Source: a virus
Taxonomy: Duplodnaviria; Heunggongvirae; Uroviricota; Caudoviricetes
DNA length: 7,647 nt
Direction: 5' to 3' (one strand)
Virus record (IMG/VR): IMGVR_UViG_2671180755_000005
The notes under the pieces were generated by a model. It searched no databases. It saw only the letters and a list, made by a program, of their open reading frames with translations, and was not told the DNA's origin. Position numbers and translations under genes: made by a program. Below, one piece after another: positions 1-4,628 of the stretch (its first letter is position 1; every line of letters starts with the position of its first letter).

Positions 1-181
1 TTTTGCTTCTGGTATACGTCATCGCGGTGAACGTACCGTCCTGGTTGGGGAACACGCCACATACCAGAGATTCGTTGTTGCCAAGATTGAGCGTATCCAT
101 GTTGACCTCATTTCCCCTTAACGCCGGGGTAGCGGAACAAAAACCTGCTGCATAGTTATTAAAGTTGAACCCTGCCGTCAT
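1..181 (-). CDS. Partial hypothetical protein, first gene leftward of the immunity region (N-terminus only, runs off the left edge)
   Basis: Minus-strand ATG (reverse complement of cat at 179-181) preceded by GAGG about 9 nt upstream. The frame stays open to position 1 (about 60 codons, MTAGFNFNNYAAGFCSATPALRGNEVNMDTLNLGNNESLVCGVFPNQDGTFTAMTYTRSK). It sits where an N-like gene would be but has no Arg-rich motif. Not in the ORF track because it is incomplete. Confidence 0.3.
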   Translation of the reverse strand, partial: MTAGFNFNNYAAGFCSATPALRGNEVNMDTLNLGNNESLVCGVFPNQDGTFTAMTYTRSK

Positions 182-279
182 GTTCTTACGCCTCGGGCTG
201 GCTACTTAACCCCTGACCACTGCCTGGTAACTCGAAGTATTGCCCTGCATTCTGTGGGGCGGGGTGAGGGAATGAATGA

Positions 280-326
280 AGTTTAGAAAAACGAACATTT
301 AAGGTCAATGTTTTTTTATCAAAACA
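280..326 (-). promoter_or_regulatory. Candidate OL/PL: perfect 18-bp palindrome TGTTTT-tttatc-AAAACA (309-326) next to a leftward promoter-like -35 TTGACC (308-303) and -10 TAAACT (285-280)
   Basis: The same TGTTTT-N6-AAAACA palindrome recurs at 1031-1048 beside the repressor gene start. The -35 and -10 hexamers read on the minus strand with a 17-bp spacer. Confidence 0.45.
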
Positions 327-392
327 TTTTAAGCAGGCAGCTGTTACGCCATCACTACGATGGCATACAGTTAATCAAATAGATGAGGTTGG

Positions 393-1031
393 TTAAATAT
401 CTTGTTGAATTTTAAAGCATACTCCCAATATGCAAGATAGATCATCCAGCATAATTGAAGGGTAGCGAGGATTCGTGGGGACTAAAAGAATATCCGGCCC
501 TTCTATCTCCAGTTTGCGAATGACAGGCGTTGTGGTCCCTTTGGGTAAGGCAAGGACAATATTTCCTGGTTGTACGATTCGATCGGGATCAACAAAAACT
601 GTTGAACCATTTGGGATGGAAACTCCACCACCAGATGTCGACATACTGTCACTCTCTAGAACAACAGCAAAGGTATTGGCCGGGATTTCTCCGACAAGCT
701 GCACACAAGAGGTTATTGAGGAATTTTTCATATAATCACTCCAGCTTGCTGCCTGCTGAAGTGATAGTAGCGGAACCGTTTTTATCGGCGGTAAAGATAG
801 ATCAAGCGAATCACCTGTATTTAACTCTCCTCCATTAAGAAGCCAATTTTCGTTTACTTTCAATATCTTTGCCAGTGAACTTATGTAACGCGAGGACGGC
901 GCTCCTCCACCGTTCATCCATTGACTTACGGAGCCTTTTGATGCGCCAGTGGCATTGACAAGGTCTTTGCCTTTCAAGTTTAGCGCATGCATACGTTGGG
1001 TTATGCGTTCAGATATTGTTTGCTTGTTCAT
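393..1031 (-). CDS. cI: cI-like prophage repressor (N-terminal HTH, C-terminal S24 LexA-type autopeptidase domain)
   Basis: Complete 212-aa ORF. N-terminal HTH-like segment (LKGKDLVNATGASKGSVSQW), C-terminal S24 features including a Ser motif (ESDSMS) and a downstream Lys (VIRKLE). Divergent from the cro-like gene across an operator-bearing intergenic region. The ATG has no SD and abuts the operator, consistent with a leaderless PRM-type transcript. Confidence 0.9.
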   Translation of the reverse strand: MNKQTISERITQRMHALNLKGKDLVNATGASKGSVSQWMNGGGAPSSRYISSLAKILKVNENWLLNGGELNTGDSLDLSLPPIKTVPLLSLQQAASWSDYMKNSSITSCVQLVGEIPANTFAVVLESDSMSTSGGGVSIPNGSTVFVDPDRIVQPGNIVLALPKGTTTPVIRKLEIEGPDILLVPTNPRYPSIMLDDLSCILGVCFKIQQDI

Positions 1032-1110
1032 GTTTTGATTTTAAAACACAGATGGTTTTGTTTCTTGACTTTCTTTGGTTTTGATTATTAAACTTTTGGC
1101 GTTCAGTTTT
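1031..1110. promoter_or_regulatory. OR-like divergent control region: palindromic operator TGTTTT-gatttt-AAAACA (1031-1048), GGTTTTG half-site-like repeats (1054-1060, 1078-1084), candidate PR -35 TTGACT (1065-1070) with -10 TATTAA (1086-1091), candidate PRM -10 TAAAAT (minus strand, 1043-1038)
   Basis: 80-bp AT-rich spacer between divergent repressor and cro-like genes. The palindrome matches the one at 309-326. Promoter hexamers were read by eye; the PR spacer of 15 bp is suboptimal, so exact hexamers are uncertain. Confidence 0.5.
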
Positions 1111-1122
1111 ATGGAGCGACTC

Positions 1123-1365
1123 ATGAAAAAATCAGAAGTATTAGGCTATTTTGGCGGAGTTGTTAAAACAGCCGCCGCTCTAGGAACGTCAAAAACCACA
1201 GTCAGCATGTGGGGGGAAGACGTTCCGTGGAAATGGGCGTTGCTAATTCAGGCAGTCACTGCCGGGGCGCTCAAATATGAGTTACACATACCGACGGTTG
1301 TCATTCCCGATTCTGATCATAATCCGCCTTCTAACCAAGGGGGGATTCATGAAAATCAAGCATGA
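1123..1365 (+). CDS. cro: Cro-like HTH regulator (YdaS-like)
   Basis: ATG at 1123 with GGAG 6 nt upstream, 80 aa (MKKSEVLGYFGGVVKTAAALGTSKTTVSMWGEDV...). First rightward gene after the operator region. The upstream ATGs at 1075 and 1111 in the ORF track lack an SD and fall inside the promoter and operator. Confidence 0.8.
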   Translation: MKKSEVLGYFGGVVKTAAALGTSKTTVSMWGEDVPWKWALLIQAVTAGALKYELHIPTVVIPDSDHNPPSNQGGIHENQA

Positions 1366-1774
1366 ACACATCCGCATGGCGATGAATGCCTGGGCGCGTC
1401 CTGATGGCGAAAAAGTTCCGGCAGCTGGAATAACCCAGGCTTATTTTGAGTTGGGTATGACGTTTCCTGAACTGTACGACGACAGCCATCCGGAAGCCCT
1501 GGCTCGCAATACCCAGAAAATTTTCCGCTGGATAGAGAAAGACACCCCTGATGCAGTTGAAAAAATGCAGGCTCTGTTACCGGCGATCGAAAAGGCAATG
1601 CCGCCTCTGCTGGTGGCCCGTATGCGCAGTCACAGCTCTGAATATTACCGTGAGATCGTCGAACGGAGGGATCGGCTGGTGAAAGATGTGGATGATTTTG
1701 TCGCAGCGGCGATCGCCTGGGGCACCCTGACTAACAGTGGGGGTCAGCCTGGTAATGCTGTTGTCGTGCATTGA
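1349..1774 (+). CDS. YdaT-family protein (DUF1019), putative CII-like early regulator
   Basis: ATG at 1349 preceded by CCAAGGGGGG, 141 aa, overlapping the cro-like 3' end by 17 nt. Position and size match the ydaS-ydaT pair of Rac-type prophages (recalled, not searched). Confidence 0.75.
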   Translation: MKIKHEHIRMAMNAWARPDGEKVPAAGITQAYFELGMTFPELYDDSHPEALARNTQKIFRWIEKDTPDAVEKMQALLPAIEKAMPPLLVARMRSHSSEYYREIVERRDRLVKDVDDFVAAAIAWGTLTNSGGQPGNAVVVH

Positions 1775-4404: not shown

Positions 4405-4628
4405 AAATCCTGTATCAGGATTACGGCCCGGTGGGGCAGGTGGTTATCAGCAGTACTGTAATGGAGTTTCGGAAGCATAACCGTGTGGTGGATGCTGTGC
4501 TGTTAACCTGTCCGGGGATATCGGCGAGTCGTGCAGGTGTGTTTATTATGAAGACGAAATTATATGGCAGTAAGGCGTGGATAAAGAAGGCGTATCGTGT
4601 AGCGTTGCAGGAGGTTAACAGTGAGTGA
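4401..4628 (+). CDS. Small hypothetical protein (75 aa)
   Basis: GTG at 4401 with AGGAGG 8 nt upstream. Start overlaps the upstream stop as GTGA (4401-4404). Confidence 0.65.
   Translation: MKILYQDYGPVGQVVISSTVMEFRKHNRVVDAVLLTCPGISASRAGVFIMKTKLYGSKAWIKKAYRVALQEVNSE

Follow-up and report, generated by a model that had tools for sequence, protein, structure and literature searches.

A probable P22/lambda-type immunity cassette with paired 18-bp palindromes in a Qin/Dic-like prophage of Escherichia coli

Genes and features of the immunity region

The window (the whole stretch of DNA analysed, 7647 bases) comes from a lambdoid prophage of the Qin/Dic-like type, of which it is the immunity region, and is 100% identical to E. 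coli O157:H7. Pfam assignments identified genes for a CI/C2-like repressor (helix-turn-helix and S24 domains), a P22-type Cro and the CII-like YdaT, and the region is the on/off control of a lambda/P22-type prophage in an ordinary arrangement. The cassette was found in 1057 of 5426 complete E. coli genomes (approximately one fifth), O157:H7 among them; in the genome of the latter, the DicF RNA and dicB lie downstream of the PL-like promoter. The features are as follows (coordinates, strand, description).

267-1343, no strand: immunity cassette (PL/OL, repressor, OR/PRM/PR, cro), moved as a unit among related phages
280-308, minus: PL-like leftward promoter, -35 TTGACC (308-303), 17-nt spacer, -10 TAAACT (285-280)
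280-297, minus: candidate OL1, a degenerate operator (TGTTCGTTTTTCTAAACT) that covers the -10 and spacer of PL
309-326, no strand: left perfect palindrome TGTTTTTTTATCAAAACA, OL2-like, adjoining the PL -35 on its upstream side
341-370, minus: GC-rich hairpin with the core GCCATC-ACTAC-GATGGC (348-364), located after the repressor stop and before the left operator
393-1031, minus: repressor gene, 212 aa, N-terminal HTH_3 and C-terminal Peptidase_S24 (Pfam), ATG 1031-1029
1031-1048, no strand: right perfect palindrome TGTTTTGATTTTAAAACA, OR3-like, covering the putative PRM -10 and start point
1038-1043, minus: putative PRM -10 TAAAAT, 6 nt upstream of the ATG
1054-1071, no strand: OR2-like site GGTTTTGTTTCTTGACTT, good left half-site only, overlapping the PR -35
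1065-1094, plus: PR, -35 TTGACT (1065-1070), 18-nt spacer, -10 TAAACT (1089-1094)
1077-1094, no strand: imperfect OR1-like operator (GGTTTTGATTATTAAACT) that covers the -10 and spacer of PR
1123-1365, plus: cro-like gene, 80 aa, P22_Cro family (Pfam, 1e-15), Shine-Dalgarno (SD) GGAG 1113-1116
1342-1359, no strand: probable binding site of YdaT (CII-like), GGGATTCATGAAAATCAA, where cro and ydaT meet, 2 mismatches to TTGATT-N6-AATCAA
1349-1774, plus: ydaT-like gene (CII functional analogue), Pfam YdaT_toxin

The closest characterised proteins are those of phage P22, with the repressor sharing 28% identity with C2 over its full length, from residue 1, and the cro-like product 47% with P22 Cro. 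The repressor also matches the structures of the lambda CI, 434 and P22 repressors. Its reading frame has an in-frame stop at 1043-1041, and all four polymorphic sites in codons 3-13 are third positions, leaving residues 3-13 invariant. The Ser (ESDSMS) and Lys (IRKL) of the dyad which, in lambdoid repressors, carries out RecA-stimulated self-cleavage (SOS induction) are present; an Ala-Ala (QQAASW), invariant in the relatives and Ala-Val in the more distant locus L144, aligns with the Ala-Gly of P22 C2 and lambda CI. Because it replaces the Ala-Gly cleavage bond, SOS inducibility is uncertain.

A whole-protein search for repressor homologues (E<=1e-10) returned close relatives only, and a search with the N-terminal 75 aa gave four near-identical fragments and nothing else. 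Among species-representative genomes, the only hits were three irrelevant S24 fragments from Mycobacterium and Alicyclobacillus. In phage genomes, tblastn found no relatives between 95% and about 30% identity and thus no graded series. The IMG/VR loci were all at least 99% identical and were used for the polymorphism map only. Most relatives are nearly identical; the evidence from covariation comes from a few diverged loci, a point against the operator reading.

The palindromes, their conservation and the exchange of cassettes

The motif TGTTTTNNNNNNAAAACA (TGTTTT-N6-AAAACA) matches the window in exactly two places, 309-326 and 1031-1048; the expected number is 0, and no match arose in any of 200 dinucleotide shuffles. 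The earlier note had reported both, with the same arms; the arms are indeed identical and the 6-bp centres differ (TTTATC and GATTTT, respectively). A longer shared unit, the 9-mer KGTTTTGWT, occurs in four copies against 0.43 expected, at 1031, 1054 and 1077 on the plus strand and at 326-318 on the minus strand, and all four GTTTTG hexamers of the window fall within the two regulatory regions. The operator half-site would be TGTTTTGAT, with TGTTT-N8-AAACA as the core. Two GGTTTTG repeats proposed earlier as half-site-like elements could be placed at 1054-1060, as given, and at 1077-1083, one base from the reported 1078-1084; both fit as left half-sites of two further 18-bp operators at 23-bp spacing. 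The right palindrome, described as abutting the repressor ATG, adjoins it so closely that one base is shared, T1031 lying opposite the A of the start codon (CAT, 1029-1031).

Comparison by blastn with Tritos, 689R5 and Evi, phages with the same backbone and other repressors, showed homology only at 1-266 and 1344-1995. The boundaries at 266/267 and 1343/1344 mark out an exchangeable cassette with both palindromes and both promoters inside. Each of the four heteroimmune cassettes on this backbone carries its own repeated motif on both sides: GTTTTG (four copies) here, ATCTAAA (four) in 689R5, GTTTAGT (four) in Evi and an AGTACAT-type motif in Tritos. The motif of Evi is the footprinted consensus of CP-933P, GTTTAGTAA, and the Evi repressor starts with MQKKE, like PaaR2. 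The ydaT gene lies outside the cassette and is common to the heteroimmune phages at 84% DNA identity.

The earlier note had suggested a search of other prophages for the same palindrome beside related repressors. Where the repressors are 83-89% identical it was kept, with constant palindrome cores and variable flanks, and it recurs in L144, whose repressor is 44% identical and has the same SKGSVSQW recognition helix. The left palindrome is a conserved island between variable flanks (298-303 and 327-333); in the right palindrome, position 1036 alone varies among the relatives. The site at 1054-1071 is invariant in 59 haplotypes and the PRM -10 TAAAAT in all relatives; 1054-1096 is nearly invariant as a whole block, in which promoter and operator constraint are inseparable. 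One relative has T at 1077, which makes the left arm of the OR1-like site perfect. Conservation of the candidate OL1 is weak, with positions 293 and 297 varying.

In L144, all four motif matches with up to 2 mismatches occupy the OR3, OR1, OL1 and OL2 positions, and the OR2 position (+23) holds the half-site TGTTTTGAT. Its OL1 position has a near-perfect site, TGTTTTGATATATAAACT, the counterpart of the OR1-like 1077-1094 is GGTTTTGTTGTTTAAACT, and that of the left palindrome lies 5 bp upstream of the L144 -35; the spacing between OL1 and OL2 differs by 5 bp from that in the window. Both L144 and another relative, L147, have a matching 18-mer which likewise ends on the A of the repressor ATG. 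Two further loci with repressors of 32-34% identity and a similar helix (L148 and L150) have other palindromes and are uninformative.

Promoters, candidate operators and the proposed switch

Within the 91-bp spacer between the repressor and cro genes, three sites follow one another at an exact period of 23 bp (1031, 1054 and 1077). The third, 1077-1094, departs from the 6-N6-6 pattern at 3 positions and from the 5-N8-5 pattern at 2, and is a repeat 88% identical to 1032-1047. PR scored 9/12 in the consensus scan, as did the PL-like promoter; the putative PRM was missed because of its poor -35 (AAGAAA). A promoter at the place equivalent to PL is present in the cassettes of 689R5, Evi and L144, and the one in the window is predicted to drive the ydfA-like/dicF/dicB operon. 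The candidate OL1 has 2 mismatches to TGTTT-N8-AAACA and is 79% complementary to 307-325. No third PL site was seen by eye at the 23-bp period (286-303, 263-280). With its centre near -45 of PL, the left palindrome need not be repressive by its position alone. Judged from these positions, the right perfect palindrome would be proximal to the repressor promoter and OR3-like, PR would be covered by the half-site and the imperfect site, and the two perfect palindromes appear not to be the main promoter-occluding operators.

Folding of 296-395 on the minus strand (-22.2 kcal/mol, z = -3.55) revealed the GC-rich hairpin at 341-370, whose stem is kept and whose loop varies among the relatives. It was missed by the terminator scan because it has no T-run; analogous hairpins follow the repressor genes of L144 and P22, and it probably forms the 3' end of the repressor mRNA or stabilises it. 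Intrinsic terminators at 309-326 or 1031-1048 were rejected, as the scan called none there and the stems consist of A/T only.

Sequence features, conservation and co-variation with the cassette were observed directly; we infer which protein binds, in what order the sites fill, whether they cooperate and where the transcript starts. With good confidence, 267-1343 can be taken as a P22/lambda-type immunity cassette, the 18-bp sites of which would be operators of the 212-aa repressor and, by analogy, also of Cro. The repressor would bind them as a dimer via its N-terminal helix-turn-helix, and the divergently encoded P22-type Cro, by the same analogy, would recognise these operators too. Repressor on 1077-1094 and 1054-1071 would turn off transcription of cro, ydaT and replication genes, and binding at the OR2-like and OR1-like sites would probably be cooperative, since the 1054 site is only a half-site. 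Occupancy of 1031-1048 would provide negative autoregulation at high repressor levels and would allow Cro to shut off repressor synthesis, and 309-326 together with 280-297 would silence the leftward ydfA-dicF-dicB operon.

The two best sites lie off the PR and PL cores and the sites on the cores are weak, which counts against this explanation. An alternative, which we consider unlikely, is that the perfect palindromes serve chiefly as Cro sites or as autoregulatory or looping sites, and that PR and PL are repressed via the weaker ones. As a Cro site, 1031-1048 would bind Cro with high affinity and switch PRM off; for looping, repressor oligomers would pair 309-326 with 1031-1048 over 722 bp and place the repressor gene inside the loop, like lambda OL3-OR3. 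Lambda Cro prefers OR3, and lambda OL3 and OR3 cooperate via a loop. The strongest matches are proximal to PRM and upstream of the PL -35, away from the lytic promoter cores, as either variant would have it, and YdaS, the Cro analogue of CP-933P, occupies PRM before its own promoter, for which it needs a higher concentration (PMC8630535). L144, however, has its best half-sites at OL1, OL2 and OR2 and a mismatch in its OR3-like site, so that the pattern of a perfect site beside the repressor gene is not conserved; the 5-bp difference in OL1-OL2 spacing also argues against this alternative, and likeness to a consensus of two or three sites is no measure of affinity.

The loss of Ala-Gly with Ser and Lys kept, along with the position of the best operators beside the repressor's own gene, allows a further, rather improbable proposal, in which the switch would not be induced by RecA-dependent cleavage. 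It would respond instead to an antirepressor (as in Qin and Gifsy) or to slow or alternative-site cleavage, with the palindromes clamping the repressor gene in a 722-bp loop. If true, this would mean a tightly autoregulated prophage controlling one dicF/dicB copy of O157:H7.

It is very improbable that the palindromes are sites of the CII-like regulator YdaT encoded downstream. The YdaT of CP-933P recognises an inverted repeat, TTGATT-N6-AATCAA, which also has a 6-bp centre, and its footprinted OM site is at a location equivalent to 1342-1359 (PMC9986795). TTGATT does occur inside 1031-1048 and 1077-1094; however, the palindromes are more than 3 mismatches from the YdaT pattern, with only a shifted match at 1075-1092, and the best YdaT-type match is the one at 1342-1359, which probably stands outside the CI/Cro operator set. 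The position of ydaT outside the cassette, and its presence in phages with other immunities which have no GTTTTG motif, also speak against this, and the identification of 309-326 and 1031-1048 as YdaT operators was rejected for the mismatched pattern and the absence of ydaT from the cassette. Least credible of all is that the palindromes have no role in DNA binding, being AT-rich repeats that arose by chance or RNA hairpins such as a repressor terminator at 309-326, for although both are AT-rich, lie in AT-rich intergenic DNA and 309-326 as RNA can form an 8-bp A/U stem, they exceed the expected count, stay constant while their flanks vary, reappear beside a repressor of 44% identity and are followed by no T-run, and the stable hairpin of the region is the separate GC stem at 348-364.

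Relation to characterised switches

The preferred reading, of 18-bp operators in a P22/lambda-type cassette, adds nothing new in concept to the lambda/P22 paradigm. In P22 immC, too, the operators are 18 bp long, OR3 adjoins the c2 ATG and the three OR sites follow one another at about 23-24 bp; OL lies a few tens of bp beyond the end of the repressor gene, with a hairpin before it. The OL/OR arrangement claimed in the earlier note is consistent with this layout, with the cassette boundaries, with the conservation and with the L144 counterparts. Differences from P22 are the operator sequence (half-site TGTTTTGAT here), only two recognisable PL sites here, Ala-Ala instead of Ala-Gly, YdaT instead of C1 as the CII analogue and a PL flanked here by no N/gene 24-type gene. 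Moreover, PR is 11 bp further from the repressor ATG, so that, unlike in P22, the OR1-like and OR2-like sites cover its -10/spacer and -35.

Like the window, lambda has repressor and cro genes in divergent orientation, three operators repeated every 23-24 bp and a repressor ATG without SD, and CI resembles the repressor in its structure, with a helix-turn-helix and an S24-like C-terminal domain. In contrast, its helix-turn-helix and Cro are unrelated in sequence, CI has the Ala-Gly bond, and rexAB and N separate OL from OR over a distance of 2.4 kb; in the window OL follows the repressor gene directly and the distance is 722 bp. The dicA-dicC-dicBp region of Qin in K-12 has, like the window, a leftward ydfA-(ydfB/C)-dicF-dicB-ydfD operon under a PL-like promoter beside the repressor gene, and in the near-identical phage vB_EcoS-640R1 the Cro-like gene carries the annotation DicC. 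Operators were reported in the dicA-dicC and dicA-dicBp intervals, and DicA has 135 aa, has no S24 domain and is controlled by an antirepressor (bioRxiv 10.1101/2023.04.14.536235). Unlike DicA, the repressor described here is full length and has the catalytic Ser and Lys, and the immunity specificities differ.

A sister heteroimmune cassette on the same backbone is that of CP-933P of E. coli O157:H7 (PaaR2/YdaS/YdaT), carried also by phage Evi, whose flanks are homologous to the window. Its switch (Jurenas et al. 2021, PMC8630535; Prolic-Kalinsek et al. 2023, PMC9986795) resembles the one described here in the short divergent intergenic region (97 bp versus 91 bp), evenly spaced 18-bp palindromes, some of them with one half-site only, repeats also at PL, a -10 located 6 nt from the repressor ATG and a YdaT site at the cro/ydaT junction. 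It differs in having a small PaaR2 with a toxin-antitoxin pair downstream instead of an HTH+S24 protein, in the half-site GTTTAGTAA and in four sites instead of three. Its leaderless repressor gene has been proven, and EMSA, footprint and 5' RACE data exist for it.

The start of the repressor gene agrees with the earlier description of an ATG without SD: there is no GGAG, GAGG or AGGA in the 30 nt upstream. The minus-strand TAAAAT was also found as described, the sequence reading TAAAAT-CAAAAC-ATG. Similar geometries are present in Evi (GATAAT-TACCAC-ATG), L144 (AATAAT, 6 nt, ATG) and L147 (TAGTAT, 7 nt, ATG), and the annotated 5' end of P22 PRM lies 4 nt ahead of the c2 ATG. In lambda, whose PRM transcript is leaderless, the -10 hexamer is also 6 nt from the ATG (TAGATT-TAACGT-ATG). 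For the CP-933P cassette, 5' RACE puts the start of the repressor transcript at the start codon (PMC8630535). Because of the lack of an SD, the geometry of TAAAAT and ATG, and the sister cassette, it is plausible, and the likeliest case, that the maintenance transcript would start with the A of the ATG (1031) and be translated without a leader. A second transcript with a long leader, from a PRE-type promoter activated by YdaT, would be compatible with a leaderless PRM transcript.

The half-site TGTTTTGAT may define a sequence-based immunity type for prophage typing, and the operator sequence may help to predict cross-immunity between co-resident prophages. In O157:H7, where the PL-like promoter heads an operon with the DicF small RNA and the division inhibitor DicB, it also offers a handle on the silencing of this dicF/dicB copy. 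A full-text literature search found, within its reach, no paper for four palindrome strings, and the operator DNA specificity of the cassette was absent from the papers it could reach.

In RefSeq records the annotated repressor consists of its C-terminal 112 aa only; this is consistent with an SD-less start overlooked by gene finders and points to a systematic annotation error. The phage records 640R1 and 813R8 are named in the text of a paper on phages of sequenced clinical isolates.

Operator-like palindromes and promoters

The repressor/cro region and its surroundings contain the following genes.

Genes of the window
393-1031, minus strand: repressor, 212 aa, with N-terminal HTH_3 and C-terminal Peptidase_S24 domains
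1123-1365, plus strand: cro-like gene, P22_Cro family
1349-1774, plus strand: ydaT-like gene, YdaT family, CII analogue of Rac and CP-933P-type prophages
Downstream of the ydaT-like gene: DnaT-like, P-like and DUF1627 genes
Left end of the window, leftward: DUF1391 (ydfA-like) gene

The repressor aligns from residue 1 with P22 C2 (28% identity), and its structure matches are lambda CI, 434 and P22 repressor; Cro is 47% identical to P22 Cro. The earlier note had described TGTTTT-N6-AAAACA palindromes on both sides of the repressor gene, and this was borne out: the 7647 bases of the window contain exactly two matches, 309-326 (TGTTTTTTTATCAAAACA) and 1031-1048 (TGTTTTGATTTTAAAACA), and 200 dinucleotide-preserving shuffles gave none. 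The first base of the right palindrome is shared with the repressor start codon (CAT, 1029-1031), and the left palindrome adjoins the -35 of a PL-like leftward promoter on its upstream side. This promoter (TTGACC-17-TAAACT, 308-280, minus strand) and the rightward promoter PR (TTGACT-18-TAAACT, 1065-1094, plus strand) were found by consensus scan.

The putative operator sites have a 9-bp half-site, TGTTTTGAT, in common. KGTTTTGWT occurs four times in the window (0.43 expected), at 1031, 1054 and 1077 with an exact 23-bp period and inverted at 326-318, and all four GTTTTG hexamers of the window belong to these copies. Two GGTTTTG repeats had also been proposed as half-sites; the one at 1054-1060 is correctly placed, and the second lies at 1077-1083, one base to the left of 1078-1084.

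Candidate operator sites
1031-1048: OR3-like, perfect arms; covers the putative -10 and start of the repressor maintenance promoter (PRM)
1054-1071: OR2-like, left half-site only; covers the PR -35
1077-1094: OR1-like, 2-3 mismatches; covers the PR spacer and -10
309-326: OL2-like, perfect arms; just upstream of the PL -35
280-297: OL1 candidate, 2 mismatches; covers the PL spacer and -10

This is the layout of P22. In the annotated genome of that phage, OR1-3 start immediately next to the c2 ATG, the c2 stop is followed by a hairpin and, at a distance of 38 bp, by OL1-3, and 4 nt separate the PRM 5' end from the c2 ATG. The distance between PR and the repressor ATG is 11 bp greater in the window than in P22. 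In the window, the OL1 candidate is a weak site with variable outer positions, and the metagenomic contig L144 has a near-perfect site at the same position.

An exchangeable immunity cassette

Phages Tritos, 689R5 and Evi are homologous to window positions 1-266 and 1344-1995 but have different repressor/cro pairs, which delimits the exchangeable immunity cassette to 267-1343. Its left edge is about 13 bp past the PL -10, its right edge is at the end of cro, and both palindromes fall within it. In each of the four cassettes, a different short motif is repeated on either side of the repressor gene: GTTTTG in the window (four copies), ATCTAAA in 689R5 (four copies), GTTTAGT in Evi (four copies) and AGTACAT-type palindromes on both sides in Tritos. 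The Evi motif equals the footprinted operator consensus of the O157:H7 prophage CP-933P, GTTTAGTAA (PMC8630535), and the Evi repressor begins with MQKKE, as does the sequenced N-terminus of the CP-933P repressor PaaR2 (PMC8630535).

In a phylogenetic footprint of the close loci L012-L015 (repressors 83-89% identical) and 59 distinct haplotypes overall, the palindromes were conservation islands between variable flanks (298-303, 327-333, 1050-1053 and 1097-1101); apart from a few rare variants, their arms change only at the innermost positions (1036, 321). The effective core of the putative operators is TGTTT-N8-AAACA. The repressor of L144 is 44% identical overall and has the same SKGSVSQW recognition helix and a related Cro; all four core matches of this contig (≤2 mismatches) are at operator positions: one has the A of the repressor ATG as its last base, one is over the PR -10, and two are at PL, inside the spacer that separates its -35 from its -10 and just upstream of the -35. 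Its middle OR position holds a perfect half-site, with spacings of 23 and 22 bp. In the more distant L147 (repressor 39% identical), AGTTTAGTATGCTAAACA ends on the A of the ATG. The two PL operators of L144 (1122-1139 and 1156-1173) are exact reverse complements (AGTTTATATATCAAAACA and TGTTTTGATATATAAACT) flanking the -35 TTGACA; their start-to-start spacing is 34 bp vs 29 bp in the window, a difference of half a helical turn.

Cassette boundaries, covariation, footprint and L144 all support the OL/OR reading proposed earlier, with the refinement that the best sites flank the repressor gene instead of covering the lytic promoters. The serious alternative is therefore that their main role may be in the shut-off of PRM by Cro, in autoregulation or in looping between OL and OR; the pattern of site strengths differs in L144, however, and this argues against a conserved special role. 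Binding of YdaT to the palindromes is excluded in practice, as ydaT lies outside the cassette and the best match to the YdaT motif is elsewhere, and a terminator role is unsupported, the stable hairpin of the interval being a separate GC stem at 348-364.

The motif of CP-933P YdaT is TTGATT-N6-AATCAA, with a footprinted OM site (PMC9986795). Its best match in the window, GGGATTCATGAAAATCAA at 1342-1359 (two mismatches), falls where cro ends and ydaT starts, as does the OM site in CP-933P; it straddles the mosaic boundary at 1344, so that the left arm is specific to the cassette and the right arm belongs to shared DNA. The GC hairpin (341-370, core 348-364, GCCATC-ACTAC-GATGGC) is located between the stop codon of the repressor gene and the left operator and has no T-run. 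Its stem is kept among relatives while loop bases vary, and analogous hairpins are found 3' of the repressor genes in L144 and P22.

Repressor start and transcript

The start at ATG 1031 is sound because an in-frame stop (1043-1041) makes it the sole start including residues 2-13, this stretch can be aligned with the P22 C2, L144 and L147 N-termini and is invariant among relatives, and each of the four DNA sites that are polymorphic within codons 3-13 is a third position. As noted earlier, no Shine-Dalgarno-like purine run was found upstream of this ATG, and a minus-strand -10-like TAAAAT lies 6 nt from it (TGTTT-TAAAAT-CAAAAC-ATG). L144 (AATAAT-6-ATG) and L147 (TAGTAT-7-ATG) have the same arrangement, and lambda PRM has the same -10-to-ATG geometry. 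The putative PRM has a poor -35, as expected of an activator-dependent maintenance promoter, and was not called by the promoter scan. The geometry is also that of the Evi/CP-933P cassette (GATAAT-TACCAC-ATG), and the CP-933P repressor mRNA was proved leaderless by 5' RACE, N-terminal sequencing and mass spectrometry (PMC8630535). By analogy, the repressor transcript is likely to be leaderless; an additional transcript with a long leader, made from a PRE-type promoter that depends on YdaT, would be compatible with it.

In O157:H7 strains TR01, EC7518 and CB7453, the RefSeq/PGAP annotation is limited to a 112-aa 'LexA family protein' that corresponds to the C-terminal S24 part (393-731), with the HTH domain left unannotated, and the phage 640R1 record starts the repressor at Met14. 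Such short annotations fit an SD-less or leaderless start missed by gene callers.

At residues ~92-97 (QQAASW), the repressor has Ala-Ala where P22 C2 (SAGQW) and lambda CI (QAGMF) have the Ala-Gly self-cleavage bond. The Ala-Ala is invariant in all close relatives and is Ala-Val in L144; both catalytic residues, Ser (ESDSMS) and Lys (IRKL), are retained. RecA may induce this repressor only slowly or not at all.

Immunity specificity and prophage context

A full-text literature search for the operator sequences found no paper containing them, and in its architecture the region agrees fully with P22, lambda and CP-933P; together, these point to a new immunity specificity within a well-known kind of switch. 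Among close phage records, CP025907.1 has no annotation of the region and the others bear generic names (repressor protein cI, protein DicC). Though ordinary, the finding is cleanly defined.

The segment 267-1343 is present in 1057 of 5426 complete E. coli genomes and matches a defective O157:H7 prophage (TR01, Xuzhou21 and others) at 100% identity; in O157:H7, the leftward operon runs on into DicF RNA and dicB. The window therefore belongs to a Qin/Dic-like lambdoid prophage, its leftward promoter being the counterpart of dicBp/PL, and, since DicF RNA and dicB are in an operon headed by a PL-like promoter, the immunity region presumably governs one of the copies of dicF/dicB that O157:H7 carries. 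In the TR01 locus (L008), DicF RNA is at 4432-4483 (Rfam, 75 bits), ~1.3 kb left of window position 1. The left arm of this prophage (L008 1-3800, left of the window) is degraded, with a truncated and frameshifted integrase, a truncated recE and insertions of the IS66 and IS256 families; despite this, the immunity cassette is intact and 100% conserved among O157:H7 strains. For the leftward DUF1391 gene, PGAP places the start at the ATG at 100 and the longest ORF starts at 181 (region 98-181); since the Pfam match to the long form starts at its residue 29, the shorter gene, with a ~170-nt leader from PL, is favoured.
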